A stretch of DNA of 60,958 bases, the filler included. It is 12 parts of 12 records of this genome, joined end to end, with 100 filler letters (N's around TTAATTAATTAA, not from the genome) between each part and the next. Parts side by side here need not be neighbours in the genome. Positions count along the whole stretch, not along the records: positions 17,082 to 22,376 come from SRR15195285_6395; 11 more parts are not named here. One strand, written 5' to 3'. Within the stretch, counting starts at the first letter, position 1; each line of letters begins with the position of its first letter. The position numbers and the translations under genes were made by a program. This document shows, one piece after another, positions 14,157 to 31,673 of the stretch. The notes under the pieces were generated by a model, which was not told the origin of the DNA, searched no databases, and was given only the letters and a program-made list of their open reading frames with translations.

Positions 14157-16981
14157 CTATCTGGCTTGCGTTCGATGGTAGCCTGCATTTCCTTGGACTG
14201 CTGCCATTACACGCCGCCTCTGTTCATCCGTCATGTCCGTTGCTTCCAGGCCTTTGACCCCTAGCTCCGTGGCTAAGGCTTGTAACAACGACGTGCATGC
14301 CGTACGCATCGCTCCGTCAGGGTCTTCGACCAACCGGACAGCCCTGGGCAGCACATGTTTCGTGATCAGCTGAGGCTTTTGCCTATACACGGTCGGTACG
14401 ATTGCTGCGGTCTTCTCTACAATAGCTGCCTTGGCCCGGGGGTTGCCAAACGCAATCACGTTTGCAAAGTACTGGACAAGTGACGTGTTGTCGACGTTAT
14501 CGATGAGACTGTCAAGGACATTCATCGTCGTATTCCGCACGCTCGCATTCGCCGAGCCGATTTGCTGGCTAAGGACGGGGATAAGCGTGTTCAGTACAAC
14601 TTCCAGCGAGTCTTTCAGCACGGGAACCATGCGCTCCAATGAACTCAACGCCAGAAGCAACACCTTTGAATTGCCATCGGCCATCCGCAAAGTTAGATGG
14701 TCGAAAATTGTCTGTAGCTTCGGCCCACATTCTACAGGATACTTCAAAACCAAGTCGACCAGCTCAGTCACCGCAGTATGGCGTACTCTCCAGTCGTTGG
14801 CGCTCATGCTGGCGTAACGCTGATCCATCCCCTCCAGCTCTGGGATCTCCTTCGTTGCGCGCGTTGCAGTGCTCACAGATCTCCGCGGCACCCGCCTTGG
14901 ATTTCGCCCCTTATCGCGCCCGTCACCGTGTACAGTGAGCGCTTGCAGTGATTCTTCGGCGCCGTCGGTGGCAGCGGTAGCCGATGGCACGCCTTTACCA
15001 GGGCAGGCGCCAGCAGAAGCAGTCAAGCGCCCGACTTGCCCGCGCTTGCCTGACTCCTTCAGGCGACTTGATCTTGGCCCGAAAGACCTGGTCGTGACTC
15101 CAAAACTTTCCACCCCTTGCGCCCGCCCTTGAGCCGCGACTTCGAGTACCTTGCGGCAGGAAGCCTCAGGCGACACAAGTGCGTTGCACTTGCGCTCAAA
15201 TTCTACGGCGTTGTAGAGGCGCGACAGCTTGTATAGCGCTCGCTTGCCGTGTGCGCGACACTCTGGCGAGCTGTCCTGAGCAAAAGCTGCGAGACCTGGA
15301 AACAATCTGTCTGTCTCACGAAACTGGACCAGTTTGTCGCCCTCTTTGTCGATCAGGGACTCTAGATGAAGTGCAGCTTTCGTGCGCAGCTGTGCATTCC
15401 TACTGTTTCCTCCAGCAAGCAGGGCAACCATGGCTGGCCTGGGTCCAGCATGGCTCACCATGGCGTGCAAAGCGTTGTCTGATGCTTCGCAGATGAATCC
15501 ATTCGTCTCGCATGCACGTTTCATCAACACAGGTACTGCTGTGTCAATAACACTATCCATCTGTTTCTTCAAAAACAGAAACATATCGTGAAGTCCCAGC
15601 AACGCGTTGCGGGACACTTGAGATCGCAAGTTCTGAGCCAGATGGAGCATGCTGGCTCCGAGCTCGGTAGAAATGCCGCTGATCGTCTCTGGATGATGCT
15701 TTGCTAAGCGTCGCACGTCGTCTATTCCTTCGTACATGAGGCTCCAATCATCTGACTTCAACTTCTGCGCAACTGACCGGGCGGCTTGCACGCTTGCATC
15801 CATCGGTGTTAGATCCTCAGTCGACAGCAACTCGACTGGCCGAGAGCCGATATCAATCGCACTCTTGCCGGCTGATCTTGATGGCGACATAGGCTCCTCG
15901 CAGTCCAACTGTTTGGAAGACGTTTTGACAGGCGTCGATTTCTTCAGAATTCCCGGTCGTCGGTTCGCAGACCCTTCACGCCGTCCATGTCGAGGGGCAC
16001 TGCCTTGGCCATTTGAGATTGAGCTCGAAGCCGAGGATAAGTCGCGGCGACCACGGGTCGGAGTTGACTGCTGTAGCAAGCCCAACTTGTCGTCGTATCC
16101 ACCGTTGTGGCTACCAGTATCTGCAGCAGCTCTACTCGACGACGCGGAGCTAGGTGCGGACACAGGCGCAGAGCCGACCTGGCCACGCTCTTCGGCGGCA
16201 CGTCGCCTCCGTCTATGGGGAGAACCGACGATCTCCGCTTGCTCAGCTTTTTCCCACCATGGCACGTCGTCAGCACGAGCCTCAGGATCCTCCAAGTAGC
16301 CTGCACCTGTCGGCATGCGATCGTCTGCCGCGAGTGGCTTGTAGCCACTGCCTGTTGGCACGCGTTCATCTGAAGTCGGTAAACCACGGTCCGTTGGGAT
16401 ATTCTCGTCACTTGGAGCACCGTAGGCTGAACCTGTTGGCGTCCGTTCGTTTGAATCGGCTGGCACTGCATCTGGAAGCCACAATCTGACCTTGTCACCT
16501 TTTCGTGGAGATGCGCCGGCGCTTGTTTCACTGGGGTCAGCTGCGCGCAAGGGCATCGCAGTTGGGTGTGCCGGAGGCGCAGCTGCTGGGTCCGCAACTC
16601 CTTCTTGCCGGAATATCCTAGGGCTATGTGACAGATTGGGAGATGACGGTGACCCAAAGCGTTGACCGGGGCTGTTTTCGTACAGCATCTGCGCCGATCG
16701 GTGTCCACCCGTTGGAGAATCAGCTGGATGACGCATGGGTGAAGGTGGATCCATAAGGTCACCCATTGTGGGGGCATCTCCTTTATCCCACCAGCGCTCT
16801 TCCTGATCGTCGTACTCTGGTTGCGGCAACGTCTGGTAGGCATCGTTCTGCTGCCAGTGACTCTGTGGTGCATGCCCACCAGCCTGCTGATAATGCTGCT
16901 GTTGGTACTCTGGTTGGTAGTGTTGCTGTTGGTGCTGTGGGTGTTGCTGATAGTACTGCTGCTGCTGCTGCTGCTGCTGCT
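14157..16981 (-). CDS. TOG-array protein (TOGARAM/crescerin or CLASP-like), two C-terminal TOG domains, 5'-truncated
   Basis: HEAT/TOG motifs LKSDDW…VRRLAKHH…NLRSQVSRNAL…TNGFI and ANDWRVRH…DGNSKV. Frame stays open upstream of 16829 through a Q/H/Y-rich tract to the contig end. Confidence 0.8.
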
Positions 16982-17212: not shown

Positions 17213-20149
17213 ATGCTGGCGCTGCTGCTGGCGCTGCTGTTGCCGTGGTTGCAGGTCGCGGAACCCGCTGGGCCCGCCGCGTCGCCATCACCGCACCTAC
17301 TGGACGTGATTGTGTTCGGCAACGGCAACTCTGAGGCAGCTCACGACCTCAATGCGAGCGGCATGGATGCCACGCAGCGCGGTGATGGAACCCCGAGACG
17401 TTCGCAGTGCCGCAGGCCATCGTCGTGTCGGAGTGGCTGGTCGTCGGAGTCAGTGGTGACTTTTCACATGCGGGTAGACCCAGATGTGCAGAACTACTTC
17501 ACGGTTAAATTTGATGGCTCCGAGAAATCGGTGCGAACCGTCGTCCGCGCTGCCAGACACGCTGCTGCTCTGAGTTGATCCGAGCCATTTCGCCGTTGAC
17601 CCGCAGGCCTCGACAATGGCGACAATTTTGAACGAATCTTTTGGTGGCCGTATTTCAGACGGTGGGTACCCACCAGAGATAGGCATGTGCTTTGGAACAG
17701 GAGACGGAGTCTCGGAAACTCATTGCGCTGATCCAGTATTCGATGGCCGGTGGCAGTATTCCACCATGCTCCTGCCGATGCATCTCACGGACGGAAACAA
17801 GGAGACCAAGTTGACACTGACGACACTGGAGGGCCACTCGATGCAGTCGCTCTTTCGAGGCTACACTCACACGTCAGCGATGGTTCCTCTTCCTGCAGAA
17901 GAGCACCCACCACCCCCGCCGCCAGCAGCGCCACCGATGCCGCGCCCACCGTCGTCTAGCGCTAGTCAATTCGAGTATCTGCTCGATCAGGTGGACGGTG
18001 GGGTGGAACAGGTTATGGCCAGGCAACTCTGGGGACCAACCTGGGATGCTGCAGTAGCTGCAGATCCGTCCAAGAGCGTCCTCACTGGAGGGCTTTGGCC
18101 CCACACTATTGAGGCAGTGAATTTTACAGTGCTGTCAAAAGACCACATTAAAGATGAGTGCGCAGGGGCTTCGACCGGGAGCAACAACAACGGGTTTCGT
18201 GGTCTGGAAGTCATGGCACGCGCATATCACTTGAACAGCAGCAAGTTTCACTTGTCTTCGGACGTTCTGGCTCGCATCGTGGCGGGCGTAGATTATTTTG
18301 GGCTTGCCCAAGGCCTCAACGGCGGATTCGACCCACGCCCTCGATTGTCTGTCGGCTGGATTGGTGCTCCGAATCGGAAAAATGGTAGTGGCTGTTTGGA
18401 GGGGTACGGCCACATGGGTTTTTCTGCTGCAGTTGACTTGGTTGCCGAGGTGGTCAGCAATGAGACACTCTCGGAAATGGTGGACGCAGATGATACCGGT
18501 CAGAAGACCTTGACGCGACGGGATTCATGGGCACGTCTGTTGGTCAACTCGCGCGACTACCTGCAGTGGAATCGTGGCCATGCGCCGAACCAGGACCTTG
18601 CGGACATCCTGGCAGCTCAAATTGCTGACCATGGTCTCGGCAAGATTGCCCCGTCTTGCCGCATCTCGCGCGAAGCTATGCTTCGCGGAGTGAAGCAGGC
18701 CGTTGGCATTCTGCAGCAACCAGCCGATGGGTGGCCGTACAAGCCGCCTCCTGGGTACGGGCCCGTCAGTTCAACCAATCCTGGGTACTGGTTTTCGAAA
18801 GAAGGCATCTCAATGGAGCCAAATACAAATGTGAACGGTGGCTACTCCCACGGATATGTGAGACTGATTCGCAGGGGGCCGTCTACTGTGCGTTTGAACC
18901 CTGTTTTTCGATTTGACCATGTGCATGTCACGACCACATGTGCGCAGGGCGATGAAGAATGGGCACTTGGATGGCTAGCCAAGCTGGTGGACGATGATGA
19001 TGTCACCGAACTTGCGCGCCTTCATGTCCAGAACTTCGGACGATTTCGCTACGAGGATAACTGCCAGACGAACATTTCTGCAGCAGATGCCAGCATGGTG
19101 ACCTCGCGGTGCATGCGGTTGGAGTCGGTGATCACCTGGGTGAGATTCCATTTTCTACCAGCCTTCTCAATTGAATCGCTGCTGAACCCGAGTCTCCATG
19201 CTACTAACAAGCAACATCGTATCACGTTGCTGCATTCTGCGCGCTCGCGCAGAGACACAACAAAAATCCAGGTTCAATTAGTTACGGCGGAGGCGACCCA
19301 GGGGCGTTCGTAGCACTCATCGCGCAGGAGCCGACATCTATCCGACTCGCGCAGCTGCGGATTCAGCATGCACAGGTGTACGCACTCGATGTAAAATCCG
19401 ATGCGGCAACCCTCTCTCCGCACTGGCCAGATCTGTTGGCCGAATCGATGAGTGCGTACCCTTCACTTGCCCCACTTTCTCTCAGCCGAAGCATCAGTTC
19501 TATTGTGATTGTGGCCACTGTGCATAAGACCTACTGGCGGAGAGGTGCGGCGTCTGCGCTGACATCTATGCTAACCAGCTACTGTGCTCCTGCTGCAGTT
19601 TGGTTGGAGAATTTCAATCAGCTGGCTGCGCTACCTCCGACAAGCTTCCGTCTCCCGATGGAGAATGACGCACCAGACTTTGCTTGGGTAGACGTGCAGG
19701 CAGGCGCGGTGGCCGTCAAGCATGCTGGAGTGAGATTGTTTGCTTCGCTGCAGTGGAGGCACGGCTATCGGAACCCGCATGGGCCGCGGGTCCCGTCAAA
19801 CGTCGCGCTCAATAACGTGAGCCGGGTGCACTACACTGTGCTCGGGGGAGGGGATGGCATCTCCCAGGTGGTGGGCTCAGTCGACCATATCATCAACGTG
19901 CAGATGCAGTGGATGAAGGGCGCAAACGCTGGGTGGTCGAGGCTATACGCAACGGAGCCAATCGGTGACTTCGTCATCGCGATGAATGGGGCACCCAACG
20001 AGACGCTTCAATGGCCTCTGCCCCCAAGCTACGTGGGGCGGGACGCAGTGGATCTGATCAGCGGTCGCAAGCATTGTGACCTGGGCGCGGCGGCACCAGT
20101 CGGACCATCTACAGCGGTGGTGCTGTGGAAGACGCGATGCTTGGGCTGA
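17213..20149 (+). CDS. Secreted bacterial-like hypothetical protein, possibly glycan-active; introns 17531-17606, 18858-18947, 19140-19252, 19452-19598
   Basis: Signal peptide MLALLLALLLPWLQVA; LDVIVFGNGNSEAAH…VDPDVQNYFTVKF; phase-consistent GT-AG introns join three ORFs (…ITW|RHNKNPG…). Confidence 0.65.
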
Positions 20150-20492: not shown

Positions 20493-22376
20493 TCACTCCG
20501 TATCTCCTGTATCACCCTGCGATGGTTCCGGTTCTTCGTCGGAGCCATGTCCCCAATTTATTGGGTTGGCTATGTTCAAATCTTCGTCCTCCTCGTCTGA
20601 CCCCATGAGTGGGTTGGATATCTTCATCGCTTGCACATCCCCTGACTTCGCGTTCTTTGACTTCGCTTTCTTTGGTTGCGTCCAAGGCTTAACCTTCTTG
20701 ACCATTATCTGCTCAATGATCAGCTCGATTACCGCGCCCAAGGTGTCATCGTCGTCGTCAGCCTCATCGAGTTTGCGCTGCTCTATACCGGCTTCCCTTG
20801 CCCTCTGTTTGAGGGTTGACAGCTTCTCGACGCTGAGGTCCTGGCGCATCTTCCGATAAGCCGCCTCTTTCATCATCTTGATCCTGTCAAAGAACTGGTC
20901 TACAGTTGGCATCATCAAGCCCAGCTCCATTCGTGCCTTCTCTACCGCCTCATTCGGGTCCAAGGGACAGCCAGTCTTTCGCTCGCAAAGCGAGTATAAC
21001 ACTTCGTGGAAGTTAAATTCGGCATCAGGGCTAATCATGTTCATGTCCTTGGTGATGTACGTGTACTTAGGATCTCTTTCCTTCGAGTTCGCGGTCACCA
21101 GATACCGACTTAGCGTCCCTCCCGGACGCTCCGGTAGTCTGAGCGAGTGCGGGTCGATTGGCTGCTCCCCCGCCTCGGGCTCGTAGCCCAAGGCGCGGCA
21201 GTTAGATCGTACACCGCCAACGCGCGGGAGCTGTCCAGTCACGGGGTCCCTTTCTCCATCCTCATCCTCGACACCATTGATGAATTCATCCCACTTGGAA
21301 AACTTGATGGAACCCGTACCTTGGTTATCATACTTTTGCCACTCCCGACAGAAATCGTCCAAGTCACATCGTGTGATTTCCAGCCCGTCCGACTCCCACA
21401 GTTCCATGTAGCGGCCGAGCACGATGTCAATGAAGAGAGTAATCATCGTAAATTCCATGAGAATCCAGAACACAAGGAAGTACACATGAGCCTGCGCAGG
21501 GTCACCACAGGTGCCATCCGCTTCGCTGCACTGCGCAACCGGACGCGTCTCCTGGACCATGCATGCATGCAGCACACATGTAAACTTGTCGCCGGTTGAT
21601 ATGCCAAACAATGTTAGCATTGCTGTCGGCACGTCTTGAAAGTTCTGGTCTTCGGTTAGGCAACCGTGTAGCCGTACTTGCCCAAACAGATTCATGCCGA
21701 CCACGCCGAACATATACAAAACAATGCAGACAAAGAACACAACATTGCCGATGGCAGGCATAGCATCCGTGAACGTGTCCAAGATGAGCTTCAAGCTTTC
21801 CACCCGCTTGCTGAACTTGAGGACCCGGCTGACCCGTCCAACGACCCGCGCAATGCGGAGTAGACGGAAAGTTGATGCGTCCATCTTGCTACGCAAGTCC
21901 GTCACATCGAGAAAGTACTCGAACCAGCTAACGAATACAACAAAAGCATCGAACCGATTCCACTTGAAGCCATCCTCGAAGTTGTCAGCCCAGTAGTCGC
22001 GCCAGGTGAAGGCCCAGATTTTAGCAACCATCTCACCCGTAAATACAAGCGTGCACATAAAGTTTAGACTTTCGTAAAAGTAGTACCATTCCACAGGCTC
22101 ACCTTCGTACGGCATGGCGAGGACAGCCACGTTGAAGACAATTGCACCGATCATAGCCAGTTCGAAAATTGGATTCGTTACGATCGCAAAGACCGGCACT
22201 CGATCGGCGCGCTTGGCTTCATATGACACCCAAGGCTTGACTTGGGCAAGTACTCTCATCGTGTTCAGCCAGTCTATTTGGCTTTTGGTGAAGTCCGGTG
22301 TCTTGGCCTTCTTGAGTTTGGTGTACTTCGTGAAGATCACCCCAACGTACAGATTGTAGAGGAACAAGCTGTGGAT
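20493..22376 (-). CDS. Four-domain voltage-gated Ca2+/Na+ channel: III-IV linker, domain IV and C-terminal tail (5'-truncated)
   Basis: LNLYVGVI-type IIIS6 end; WNRFDAFVV; S4 FRLLRIARVVGRVSRVLK; GMNLFG; pore LFGISTGDKF; EF-hand-like FCREWQKYDNQGTGSI. Confidence 0.88.
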   Translation of the reverse strand: MHSLFLYNLYVGVIFTKYTKLKKAKTPDFTKSQIDWLNTMRVLAQVKPWVSYEAKRADRVPVFAIVTNPIFELAMIGAIVFNVAVLAMPYEGEPVEWYYFYESLNFMCTLVFTGEMVAKIWAFTWRDYWADNFEDGFKWNRFDAFVVFVSWFEYFLDVTDLRSKMDASTFRLLRIARVVGRVSRVLKFSKRVESLKLILDTFTDAMPAIGNVVFFVCIVLYMFGVVGMNLFGQVRLHGCLTEDQNFQDVPTAMLTLFGISTGDKFTCVLHACMVQETRPVAQCSEADGTCGDPAQAHVYFLVFWILMEFTMITLFIDIVLGRYMELWESDGLEITRCDLDDFCREWQKYDNQGTGSIKFSKWDEFINGVEDEDGERDPVTGQLPRVGGVRSNCRALGYEPEAGEQPIDPHSLRLPERPGGTLSRYLVTANSKERDPKYTYITKDMNMISPDAEFNFHEVLYSLCERKTGCPLDPNEAVEKARMELGLMMPTVDQFFDRIKMMKEAAYRKMRQDLSVEKLSTLKQRAREAGIEQRKLDEADDDDDTLGAVIELIIEQIMVKKVKPWTQPKKAKSKNAKSGDVQAMKISNPLMGSDEEDEDLNIANPINWGHGSDEEPEPSQGDTGDTE

Positions 22377-27016: not shown

Positions 27017-29936
27017 ATGTCGGCCGAAACGTTGCTCGGCGGCCACAAGGATCGCTTTGATGCGGGGCTACGGGCGTTGCAGGGCGGGAAGAAGGCGGGC
27101 CCGCGGGAGCTCCAACGCATCCGTGAACGAGAGGTGGGTGTGCTATACCGCATACGCTATGTGCTGTGCCCCCCCTCCCCCTCCCTCTCTCTCGCATGCG
27201 CGGCCACACATGCTCCTCCCGCTGCGCTAGCTGTCCTTTCCATCGGGTTGCTGACGGGTGGGCACATCGCTGCCGCAGAATGAACGCTATCATGAAATTG
27301 AGCAGGCGCGGCAACGCGAAAAGGAGCGGGAGGAGCGCAACCGAGCTCGCGCGATGGCCAAGCTGACCGCTGCAAAGATGGCGGCGGAGACAGAAGCAGA
27401 GAAACAGCGCGAGCGGGAGCTGGCGGAATCGATGGGTATCGACGTCGACGCCGCGAACGAAAAAGAGCTTGCGGCGGCGATGGCCGGCCTGGGTATGAAG
27501 CCAGTCCAGACGGGACGCGCCCCACTACAGGGCATGGTCGAATCGGCACCGCGGGTCGACGTCGGCGACTTTGCAGCCAAGCGCGCGGCTGCGCTAGCCA
27601 AAGCGAAGATGCTCCGCGAGGAGCAGGGGGGCATCGGCGTGACGGTGAGTATGGGCGCGCGAGCGCCGGGGATCGGGAGTGACGCTGTAGGCGGAGACTG
27701 GGGCCGCTATGAGCGCGGGGAGACGCGCCAATCCACGGCGTCGCCCAAGCCTGTCAGGAGCGAGCCGAAGCGACTCATCGCTCCGAGAGGCGAAGAGCGC
27801 AGCACTCGCACCAGCCCGCGCACGGCCAAGCGCCAGAGTGCTGCGGCCGCCAAGGCAGCCTCTCAGATAGCGGATGCTAGGAGCATCCTTGCGCTGGACC
27901 CTTACGACAAAGAGGCCTCAGCCACTCTCAAGGCAGCCCAGGCAGTGCTTGAGCGCAGTGATACTCAGCCGGATGATGGTGTCACTGAGGCGTGGGGAGC
28001 CACTGATACAGCCAGCGTGCGCAAGCAGCGCCGAGTTGACAAGCGGGAGCGTCGCAAGAAACGCGAAAGACGTGGCAGCGGTCTGCGCGCTGGATCACAG
28101 TCCATGCCAATCCTTCCCTCTATGGCTTCGGAAGCGGACGATGTGGGTGAAGCCCAGGTTGCCCAAGCCTACGGCGGTTCGCCGAAGTCATCCGGCGGGA
28201 AGTCTCGGGCAAGAAAGCGAGAGCTGAAAGCTGCAAAAAAAGCCGCCGCTGTCGATTCGGCAGCGGCGGCTGCCGCGGCGCAACAGGCGAAGCTGGCGGG
28301 TGTAGCGGCGGCTGAGGCAGCAGCTACACGTTCACCGAAGCCGCAGCGTTCCGTGTTCGCTTCACGAGAGGAGCTAGAAGCCATGAAGCTCTCGGAGCTA
28401 CGCAGGCACGCCTTGCAGACAGCTGTAGATGAGGACCTATGCGAGGCAGCCCTGGATAGTGATGATCCGAAAGCAGAGATGGTAACGGTTGTGCTCGCGC
28501 ACACGGATGCCATCCACGCGAAGGAAGATGCAGCAATTCAAGCATGGCAGGACGCGGAGGACCGTTTGGAGGCGGAGCGGCGGGTACAGATGGAGATGGA
28601 GGCAGAGGCTGAAATGGCGGCTGAGCTGGCTGCAGAGGCAGCGCGTGAAGCTGCTGCACAGGAAAGAGCGCGACAGGAAGCCGAGGAGGCAGAACGTCGC
28701 CGGGCGGAAGCAGCCGCGGTAGAGGCATCGATGAAAGCACGTCGTGCCGAAGACCTGGAGCGGTTGCGGGCGATGAAACTGTCAGGTCTTCGGCGTCATG
28801 GTGTGGAAAGCGGCCTAGACGAGAGCCAGTTGGAGATTGCATTGGATGCCGAGGACCCAAAAGCAGCAATCGTAGAGATTCTCATCGATCAGCTTGACAA
28901 GGAATACGCAAGAGCAGCCGAGCTACAACGACAAAACTCCAGAGTCGAAAAGGAGTCAGGTACAGGAGGAAAAGCCATAGGAGCGCAGCGGTCAGGCGGC
29001 AAGGGTGATAGACGGAGGAAACAAAAGCAGCAGGCACCAAAGCAAAATCAAGCCACGGCTGGGCGTGCGCGGAGTTACAGTCCTGAATCGAGTATGGGAT
29101 CGCCAGTCCAGGATTGTAGTCACGGCGACGCAGACGAACCTGATCAGACGGAAAAGGAGTACCAGCCACGACGTCGGCAACCGTCTATGCAGCCCCAGGC
29201 TGCACGAGTCAAGACAGCGTTGTCCCCCCGTGTGCTTGAGGCCCGGCAGGAAAAAAGGAGGGAAAGGGAAAGAGAGAAAGAGCTTGCCAGGCGGAAGGCT
29301 GCGGCGACCGGATCGGGGCGTGGTGCTGGCGGTGCAATTCCGTTCAACCCGCCACATAGACTACCGACACGGACAATGCCCGAGGAAGACGAGAAACAGG
29401 AGCGCGAGGATGTCGGTGGTAGAGAGAACGCGAGCGATATCTCAGCAGCACGCGCCACTGCCAAGGCTGGAGCGGCCGTGACGATGACGGGGCAGGCTGC
29501 AAAAGGAGACTCCACTGCAGCCATGCGGAAAAAGCGCATGGCTGAGGTGCAGGCACGTCTTCAGGCAGAGGAGGTGAATCGCCAGTCACGATACCGCAAG
29601 GACAAGCAGCAGGGGACGTCGTCGCCGGTAGTGAAGCAGCGTGGTCATGGGCGTGCTGTAAGCTTTGGCAACGTGGAGCAGGCCACTAGCTCTAGCAGCG
29701 ATGAGGGAGCCCATGACAAAGACGAGCACGAGGGCGGCGGCGGTGATTCAGACCAACGTAGACCTTTCGTTGAAATCAAGCCTCGGCCAAAGCGAAATGC
29801 TGTAGAAGAGGTGCGACGTTACATGCAGGAGCGCGGGCCTGTCCAAAGCAGCTCTCGCACGATGTATGATGAGATCCTTCGGGAAGCCAGGGCGCTGGAG
29901 AAGATGCTGAATGACGATGATGTTGTCATATGCTGA
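27017..29936 (+). CDS. Charged coiled-coil/disordered protein with two copies of a ~40-aa helical module; intron 27134-27278
   Basis: 892-aa ORF plus a phase-0 upstream exon (…RIRERE|NERYHEIEQ); start codon uncertain (27005 or 27017). Confidence 0.7.
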
Positions 29937-29992: not shown

Positions 29993-31409
29993 TCATTTTG
30001 CCAACACGAAATCACGAAAGTAGGCCGGGCACACGTGTGGCACATCCCTACAGGTTTCGTGTCCTGCTCCCGCAACTCTCAAGATTGTCAAGTTCCCAAC
30101 CTGTCGTGTAGACCCCCAGGGTGAAGTACTAGTAGGTGTATTCGCAGGCATCCAAGGGTGCAGCGGTGCGGCCACCAGCGCAGCTTGTCCGTCCCATTTC
30201 ATCGCCCGTGTCCAGGCATCAAGTGCCAGGTAGTTGTAGTGCAAGTCCAGTTCACCACTGTACAGGAGCACTCGAACGGTCGGATGGTCGTTCACAATCG
30301 ATTCCATCGCCCAACGATACGATCGCACAAGATCCAGGTTGAACCGCGGATAAACGGTTGAGTTGAAGCAGCTCCAGACGGAAGAAGCGTTTTCCGCGCG
30401 TAGTGTGCGTTTTGTGGCATCGCTGCGAAAGAAGCTCAGGTACTCCGGCGGGTTGCCAACGAATGGCGTTGTCGCTGGAGCCCATCAACAGGGGCCGAAT
30501 CAATACGGCTAGCAGACAGAATAAATTATTATTGCCTGGACAATCGATGATATCGTGTGAGTGGAGCGCACCATGAATGTTCAGATTGTCTGGAGTTGGA
30601 CAGTATGACGAGAGCGCCCAGCATTCGTCATTCGCAGCACTCCAGTTGCCCTGTAGCAGCGCCCGCTTGCAACCGAACCTATACTGACGGTTGAAGCGTG
30701 CCAAGGTCGTAGCATTTATCAGCTTGTTTTCGTGCAAGAACTCGCCCCATGTCGGGATCTGCGTCAGAGGATCGATCAGCCCATTGCCCATTGCTATCCC
30801 ACGCAGCGTGAGTGGCAATGTTCCTTCAAGAACGAGCTTGGCTACTACGGGCAAATACTGCCCGGCCGCTGAGTACCCCATGATGTAGAACTCCCACGTG
30901 ATCTCACTTTCACGTGACTGCTGTCGGAGCCACGTACCCAGGAACGAGACGATGCGGCGGGCTGTCTGATTTGCAGTGACTGCCACCGGCTGCTCGCCAC
31001 CACTATAGCCTGCGCCCTCCCACTCGTCCAGGTACAGGATGTCAAGCCCGAGTTGGCCAGGTATCGAATTCGGGTTTTCGACTAGGGTGCCATTTTCGAG
31101 GAGGCACGGCCCAGCTTGGTAGGTCGCGTCGCGCGCGCCAGCGCCCCCAGGACCACCGATAAGCCACAGCAGAAGCGGGACCTGCTGCTTCTCGCCCACA
31201 CTAATGGCACCCGTGGCCCGGCCATGCGGAAAGTGCCACCACCACACGCTGCTCGTTTCGCTGCTTCGGTCGTCGTCCTCCTCCTCCTCCAGCACGAGGA
31301 AGCCACTCTTACTAGCACTTGCTGCAACACAGCTGGGCAGTGTGGTCGCCCGGGAAAGCGTCGTGGCTACGAGCGCCAACACTGCGGCTGCCAGCAGCGC
31401 CGGCTGCAT
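29993..31409 (-). CDS. Serine carboxypeptidase, peptidase S10 family; intron 30475-30571
   Basis: Signal peptide; PLLLWLIGGPG; GPC; FYIMGYSAAGQY; GIAMGNGLIDP; VLLYSGELD; VAGAGH (Ser/Asp/His triad present). Confidence 0.85.
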
Positions 31410-31673
31410 ATATGTCCGCAAAGATGTATGTAATTGCATTGATCGTCGGTACGCGCGTGTACGCGAGCGCCACCATCACCATGCACCAGCGCTCATCAGT
31501 CAAGTTGGCCGCCACCGCCGCGCGCGCGACGAGACGGCGACGACGCGATGAGAGCCGAGATCTGCATTAGTCGAGAGACTGCGCGAGCAGTGCCCAGATT
31601 GTAAGGTCGTTGAGTCTGGGTGCTTAAAACTCGTATAACAAATGGAGGAGCTGGAGGGATATGGTTCGTGAGG

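Follow-up and report, generated by a model that had tools for sequence, protein, structure and literature searches.

A module shared by a channel tail and a coiled-coil protein

The stretch of DNA analysed here (the window; 60,958 nt) consists of 12 contigs, each 3.2-7.9 kb long with a G+C content of 55-62%, joined through N spacers. It encodes a short helical module that occurs once on the C-terminal tail of a voltage-gated cation channel and twice in a coiled-coil protein from a different contig. The channel open reading frame (ORF; P0001) occupies 20493..22376 on the minus strand, with its stop codon at 20493-20495 and its 5' end open at the contig edge, and corresponds to domain IV and the tail of a four-domain channel. 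Repeat IV (aa 69-323; 21408..22172, minus strand) matches Pfam Ion_trans (E=2.3e-40) and is followed by a proximal C-terminal region (aa 324-393; 21198..21407, minus strand) that can be aligned to the C-terminal domains of Nav and Cav channels. Among PDB chains, the best relative is Cav3.3 (E=1.8e-58), with its best stretch on repeat IV; other Cav and Nav channels also match, and the Nav1.5 alignments extend to residue 393 of the query. By sequence, repeat IV is homologous to that of Cav/Nav channels and the host is a four-domain voltage-gated cation channel, the four-repeat layout being taken from the homologues because the contig carries repeat IV only. A near-identical protein of 379 aa (P0235) is present in a public collection.

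The module copy of the channel, as delimited by a hidden Markov model (HMM) of the family, spans 57 aa (aa 507-563; 20688..20858, minus strand), with an HMM-aligned core at aa 509-556 (20709-20852, minus strand). The channel peptide quoted in an earlier, sequence-only reading of this DNA starts at 20825 on the minus strand, within the ORF at 20493-22376. That reading placed the module roughly where Cav/Nav channels carry the IQ motif. The location holds only approximately: the module core begins ~115 aa past the point where alignment to the Nav/Cav C-terminal domain stops (~185 aa past the last Ion_trans residue), and the tail has no IQ consensus. In Cav/Nav tails, this consensus reads [FILV]Qxxx[RK]Gxxx[RK]; a strict regular expression found no match in P0001, and the single match of a looser version, at aa 186, falls within Ion_trans. 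Just upstream of the core, the basic stretch AAYRKMRQ forms the lead-in helix of the module in an AlphaFold2 model. The C-terminus beyond the module is Lys-rich, then acidic, and probably disordered.

The coiled-coil protein, of 893 aa, is encoded at 27255..29936 on the plus strand; it is charged, rich in Ala, Glu and Arg, and matches no Pfam family. Its two module copies, each with a 57-aa span, are located 130 aa apart at 28353..28523 (copy 1, 59.3 bits) and 28743..28913 (copy 2, 45.6 bits), both on the plus strand, and contain the segments quoted earlier, which start at 28386 and 28776. All three copies in the window align without gaps, as had been proposed from the letters. In BLASTP comparisons, the channel segment shared 15/44 identical and 30/44 positive positions with copy 2 (E=3e-6) and 11/44 identical positions with copy 1 (E=0.010), E-values that apply to a single pairwise comparison. 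When searched against the whole coiled-coil ORF, it matched exactly these two copies. An HMM built from 45 copies from outside the window gave 52.7 bits for the channel tail and 45.1 bits for the coiled-coil protein; among 2000 shuffled channel tails, 1162 of which were reported by hmmsearch, no score exceeded 6.6 bits. These sequence comparisons establish that the channel tail copy belongs to the module family. No fourth copy was found in the six-frame translation of the window with either the three-copy HMM or the family HMM.

Both copies are retained in relatives of the coiled-coil protein (P0003, P0004 and P0094). In P0094, the distant relative, the modules align gap-free at 59% and 54% identity, compared to 40-41% in the flanks.

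Family size, hosts and taxonomic distribution

When only the channel copy (P0001 residues 520-582) served as the query, a word-index search yielded 38 candidates, none with E<=1. A profile built from the three copies recovered a large family: 12 longer proteins were found first, several of them with many tandem copies. We then ran an exhaustive hmmsearch with the same profile over 1.84 billion cluster representatives, which carry no source names. It retrieved 1492 proteins at E<=1e-3, 453 at E<=1e-10 and 52 at E<=1e-30. The best 150 of the 1492 matches mostly had 2-9 matched stretches each. We counted 950 copies in 238 of 244 collected proteins, at 1-9 copies per protein, with a median spacing of 64 aa (10th-90th percentile, 56-87). 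As the 244 proteins are the best-scoring matches, these counts are biased toward multi-copy proteins. The number of representatives and the variety of their architectures bear out the suggestion that the module is high-copy and promiscuous.

The family consensus is EAALRAELSALKLSALRKRARAAGVDEEALEEADDADDPKAALIELIL, followed by an Ala/Ser/Gly-rich linker. It can be divided into a lead-in helix (aLRaEL), a basic helix (LsaLRKRAxxxG), a short acidic helix (eeLeeA), a tight acidic turn (DxDDPK) and a hydrophobic helix (aALIELIL). Among 564 unique ungapped copies, the most conserved positions were L8 (98%), A20 (96%), D35 (94%), L16 (93%) and G24 (91%), followed by R19 (89%), E7 and L46 (87% each), A33 (86%) and L4 (85%); in the acidic turn, D37 (68%) and D38 (65%) accompany D35. 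Charge is distributed as a dipole, with a mean of +2.6 over positions 1-25 and -6.0 over positions 26-48, for a net charge of -3.4 over positions 1-48. The channel copy keeps the core positions, and its acidic turn is a run of five Asp.

We scanned 155 matched proteins against Pfam, leaving out P0001, P0003 and P0009, which are the window's own or near-identical, and P0010, a near-duplicate of P0007. The module was found on many unrelated hosts, among which signalling domains are prominent. TIR_2 was detected in 29 of the 155 proteins and NB-ARC in seven, and a second match list, with precomputed Pfam assignments, gave 26/86 and 16/86, respectively. Two proteins contained WW, one C2 and one NACHT, and several SAM-type families appeared in one or two proteins each. 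At E<=1e-3, DUF5333 matched 18/155 proteins and Rho_N 7/155. SAP matched one protein (E=7.6e-9), in a stretch that may or may not overlap a module copy. Further hosts include a 1959-aa cyclic-nucleotide (cNMP)-binding protein, a protein kinase with ankyrin repeats, a zf-CCCH protein, WW proteins and a TPR protein. Module copies lie mostly at protein ends: the kinase has two at its N-terminus and the cNMP-binding protein two near its C-terminus. The tandem arrays, which are the usual form of the module, and its strong linkage to TIR and NB-ARC had escaped the sequence-only reading.

ARM, LRR, WD40 and TPR arrays are known from SARM1-type and TIR-NB-ARC proteins. Many module hosts share the cores of the SARM1-type SAM-TIR proteins and of the NLR-like TIR-NB-ARC proteins. 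They differ from both in that module arrays replace, or add to, the ARM, LRR, WD40 or TPR arrays, and sit at both ends. Three TIR-NB-ARC proteins of 1748-1911 aa (P0174, P0175 and P0176; one from JGI and two from SAG- or COSAG-named EukProt assemblies) have arrays that flank the TIR-NB-ARC core at both ends, with 4-7 N-terminal and 2-5 C-terminal copies, a layout unusual for an NLR-like protein. Another protein, P0002, has a SARM1-like layout, consisting of a SAM-like-looking N-terminal region, seven modules, a SAM domain (aa 578-627) and a TIR domain (aa 663-724).

The proposal that the module is specific to one lineage stands in part. Every match with a named source comes from a Picozoa assembly: all 16 of the 16 EukProt-named rows in the second match list bear SAG or COSAG names, from eight assemblies, and for five of these eight (SAG22, SAG31, COSAG02, COSAG04 and COSAG06) the EukProt accessions read 'Picozoa_sp'. 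In addition, the 90% cluster of the window's coiled-coil protein includes a member from Picozoa sp. COSAG02, indicating that the window comes from a picozoan or something very close. However, most matches are metagenome proteins that carry no source name, and the second match list scored only the 8000 candidates sharing most words. Restriction of the module to Picozoa is therefore likely from its sequence distribution, albeit not proved. Querying the ESM Atlas with residues 125-300 of P0002 was uninformative, as the clusters returned (top score, 0.87) had neither names nor taxa.

Predicted fold and known domain families

AlphaFold2 predicted the channel copy, from a 48-sequence alignment, as a confident four-helix unit, with a mean predicted local distance difference test (pLDDT) of 91.4 and a predicted template modelling score (pTM) of 0.74. 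The helices cover residues 2-9, 13-22, 27-34 and 39-56 of the 57-aa span, and the turn between helices 3 and 4 has ~4 residues. For a two-copy protein (P0127; 19-sequence alignment), each copy was modelled at a pLDDT of ~84-92, with a dip in confidence at the linker and a pTM of 0.46. Such a pattern is more in keeping with separate beads than with a rigid solenoid.

The monomer model had no Foldseek match in the PDB at E<=1e-3, and the rows with a probability >0.6 were Fas death domains only (TMq 0.60-0.71). The BFVD search likewise gave none at E<=1e-3; weak rows came from, among others, a Pithovirus SAP protein and a phage protein labelled 'Rho termination factor, N-terminal'. A wide VIA structure search returned 50 rows, all below Z 8, the tool's stated noise mark, under which a match may reflect no more than a common helical arrangement. 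The top row was the Rho N-terminal domain (1a62_A; Z 7.6, root-mean-square deviation 2.5 Å, 48 aligned residues, 19% identity). Other HeH-type (helix-extended loop-helix) rows were the C-terminus of T4 endonuclease VII (6.5), CDNF SAP (5.5), emerin LEM (5.2 and 4.5), MANF SAP (5.0), FAN1 residues 463-509 (5.0) and Hcc-1 SAP (4.6). A second group consisted of death folds, namely TNFR1 (7.2), Fas (6.9), FADD (6.0), the 2of5 death-domain complex (6.0), RIPK1 (5.3), p84 (5.1), ankyrin-G (5.1) and vFLIP (4.5). With every Z value under 8, neither group is established.

We took as the mark of the HeH class a small domain with two roughly parallel helices and an extended loop, superposable on solved members. 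An HeH arrangement with an inserted short helix is the assignment we prefer, because the weak sequence signals point only to Rho_N and SAP, with none to death folds, and because a unit of ~50 aa with four helices is too small for a six-helix death fold. The predicted fold thus bears a weak resemblance to the HeH class (Rho N-terminal, SAP, LEM), with one extra helix. The HeH/SAP/LEM-like start suggested by the sequence-only reading finds the same weak agreement (Rho as the best neighbour, SAP and LEM rows below it, and the Rho_N matches), but no more, given the noise mark.

None of 48 single modules matched a Pfam family at the gathering score, in line with the earlier expectation of no clean Pfam match. 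The best matches were Rho_N (E=0.0037), DUF6887 (E=0.0057) and SAP (E=0.19), each in 1/48. In P0128, Rho_N passes the whole-protein cut-off (27.7 vs 24.9 bits), with no single stretch passing it, and positions 1-21 of the Pfam model align to the basic helix of the module (aa 68-88). The Rho_N signal in multi-copy proteins arises because weak per-copy matches sum. Compared to the Rho N-terminal domain (PF07498; 1a62 residues 1-48), which it resembles in structure and, through Rho_N, along the basic helix, the module is acidic, tandem and eukaryotic, and it is joined to TIR/NB-ARC proteins or a channel, not to an OB-fold RNA-binding domain. With SAP (PF02037), the SAP-like domains of MANF/CDNF and emerin LEM, it shares a small helix-loop-helix and a leucine-rich first helix that ends near a conserved Gly. 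In contrast to the SAP consensus and to LEM, it has ~13 extra residues, forming the short helix, between this Gly and the last helix; moreover, it is net negative and occurs in tandem arrays of up to nine copies.

Death folds are six-helix bundles of ~85-90 residues. The death domains of Fas, FADD, TNFR1 and RIPK1 superpose partially, by four helices, over all 57 residues of the module (Z 5.1-7.2), and their usage as small helical modules on immune-type signalling proteins is analogous. Nonetheless, we rejected a six-helix death fold, as the module has four helices, not six, in 57 residues (~50 aa, not ~90), and six helices would not fit into the median period of 64 aa. The Pfam tallies of the 155 proteins and the 48 single modules contained no Death, DED, CARD or PYD match.

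An EF-hand has a 12-residue Ca2+-binding loop between two helices. This assignment was also rejected: the turn of the module has ~4 residues, and no EF-hand family appeared in the Pfam tables of the window proteins, the 155 matched proteins or the 48 single modules. DUF5333 (PF17267) matched stretches of 34-39 residues within or across copies in its 18 proteins, and only 1/48 single modules (E=0.19), and was set aside as a compositional or weak similarity. DUF6887, which matched copy 1 of the coiled-coil protein (E=0.005), was discarded since it appeared family-wide in only 1/48 single modules. DUF5333 exceeded its whole-protein cut-off in P0176 and P0182. Given that DUF5333 and Rho_N matches fall inside the repeats, automatic annotation may mislabel module proteins with either name.

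Full-text searching of the literature gave no description of the repeat. A term search of the article on Picozoa single-cell genomes (PMC8599508) found 'Pfam' nowhere and 'repeat' once, in a methods sentence on repeating steps. We regard the module as an unnamed, expanded, acidic and tandem HeH-like family with new partner domains.

Candidate functions and the wider window

The explanation we favour, with about an even chance of being correct, is that the module is an unnamed, autonomous HeH-type domain of ~48 aa, expanded in Picozoa, that serves as a protein-protein docking unit, the channel copy being a docking tag. Each bead would dock another protein, its basic and acidic halves forming a charge dipole, and tandem arrays, as beads on a string at N- or C-termini, would supply multivalency. 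The single channel copy would lie outside the gating machinery and link the channel to proteins that have the module themselves or bind it; candidates are scaffolds such as the coiled-coil protein, or TIR/NB-ARC assemblies. Protein binding is known for the SAP domain of MANF/CDNF (partner, BiP) and for the emerin LEM domain (partner, BAF). With these complexes among the structural neighbours, protein docking by this fold class has precedent.

Several observations weigh against this explanation. Docking itself is an inference, and the conserved charged residues could merely stabilise a very small fold. The HeH assignment rests on weak signals: when every chain sequence in the PDB was searched with the profile, the top match was an unrelated ParE toxin (E=0.32), and hhalign of the family profile to the E. 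coli Rho N-terminus gave a probability of 0.3%, a weak test with one Rho sequence only. A tblastn search of phages with the same Rho N-terminus retrieved five Rho genes, not enough for a profile of Rho_N. To these must be added the absence of Foldseek and BFVD matches at the threshold used and the position of every VIA match below the noise mark. The channel copy also deviates in its turn, with TL where P and K are found in 63% and 65% of copies. Finally, a search for channel orthologues in metagenome contigs recovered one distant fragment at 25% identity, without the tail. A complex prediction for the channel module with module 2 of the coiled-coil protein, made without alignments or controls, scored 0.00 and carries no weight either way, be it for docking or for the targeting or oligomerisation system suggested by the sequence-only reading.

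Some of the same features would be compatible with a passive role. The module could be a spacer, a semi-flexible and highly charged stalk that sets distance or solubility, with the channel copy as a neutral leftover of domain shuffling. Bead-like arrays of 1-9 copies, low-complexity Ala/Ser/Gly linkers, the low inter-copy confidence (pTM 0.46) and the deviant turn of the channel copy are all consistent with such a stalk. However, charged positions of a surface type are strongly conserved in the 564 unique copies (E7, R19 and D35), both copies are kept gap-free in the distant coiled-coil relative, and one or two copies recur on unrelated proteins, so we consider a spacer rather unlikely. The HeH resemblance also raises the possibility of nucleic acid binding, with the basic helix and the conserved Gly as the contact sites for DNA or RNA. 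The arrays of TIR-NB-ARC proteins would then be nucleic acid sensors, and the channel tail, once cleaved, could have a nuclear role. The nearest fold is indeed the N-terminal part of the Rho RNA-binding domain, and Hcc-1 and FAN1 contribute lower-scoring SAP rows; Rho_N and SAP have weak Pfam matches (7/155 and 1/155), and the R/K-K-R-A-x3-G motif is conserved (R19, A20 and G24). Binding of this kind is nevertheless unlikely for a module that is acidic overall, and especially in its second half, which is found mainly on signalling proteins of the cytoplasm or the membrane (such as the channel and the TIR, kinase and cNMP-binding proteins) and whose fold matches remain below the noise mark.

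Two homotypic readings can also be considered. One is a lineage-specific adaptor through which TIR/NB-ARC assemblies in Picozoa would be connected to ion channels, kinases and cyclic-nucleotide-binding proteins, in a usage that may be akin to that of animal death folds or SAM domains; we find this doubtful. The other, a stronger form of the docking idea, is a death-fold-like homotypic unit that would nucleate filaments or signalosomes together with TIR/NB-ARC. It draws on the recurrence of death domains as neighbours covering the entire span (TNFR1 and Fas in particular), on the Fas-only Foldseek rows with a probability >0.6, and on the co-occurrence of the module with TIR, NB-ARC and SAM. It is very unlikely, since the module has four helices in 57 aa rather than the six in ~85-90 aa by which the fold is defined, the Pfam tallies lack death-fold families and the Z values stay below the noise mark. 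Least probable of all, to the point of being close to dismissal, is an acidic loop that would bind Ca2+ or another metal, acting as an ion sensor at the mouth of the channel tail. The conserved D-x-D-D turn, the acidic helices on either side and the five Asp of the channel copy would suit it, but a turn of ~4 residues is far from the 12-residue EF-hand loop, no EF-hand family was detected in the Pfam tables and most hosts have no link to Ca2+.

Picozoa, marine protists that are abundant and almost uncultured, owe most of what is known of them to single-cell genomes. A family of at least 1492 sequence clusters that lacks a Pfam name amounts to a sizeable blind spot in the annotation of Picozoa genomes and ocean metagenomes, which an HMM of the family would immediately improve. 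The strong association with TIR and NB-ARC points to a new class of repeats in NLR-like proteins of protists. Under the docking interpretation that we prefer, the presence of the module on a kinase, on a cNMP-binding protein and on the tail of a channel is suggestive of a docking code common to excitability or second-messenger signalling and immune-type assemblies, and opens the prospect of an HeH fold reused as a multivalent protein adaptor. If the module were, moreover, a homotypic adaptor, an uncultured relative of the red algae would have a voltage-gated Ca2+/Na+-type channel physically coupled to a machinery for defence or cell death of the NLR-like kind.

Other genes were detected in the window. 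Two long open frames at 17574-19313 and 19208-20149 (both plus strand) lie on the channel contig, on the strand opposite to the channel and upstream of its 3' end. Pfam gave nothing for either at E<=1e-3. Because of their overlap of ~100 nt, in different frames, the two could be a single gene with an intron or a frameshift. The coiled-coil gene is adjoined, in convergent orientation, by a serine carboxypeptidase gene at 30252-31475 on the minus strand (Peptidase_S10, E=3.1e-30). A TOG/CLASP-type microtubule regulator is encoded at 14160-16979 on the minus strand (CLASP_N, E=1.8e-16; CEP104-like TOG, E=1.3e-8), with a Gln/His/Tyr-rich N-terminus that reaches the contig end.

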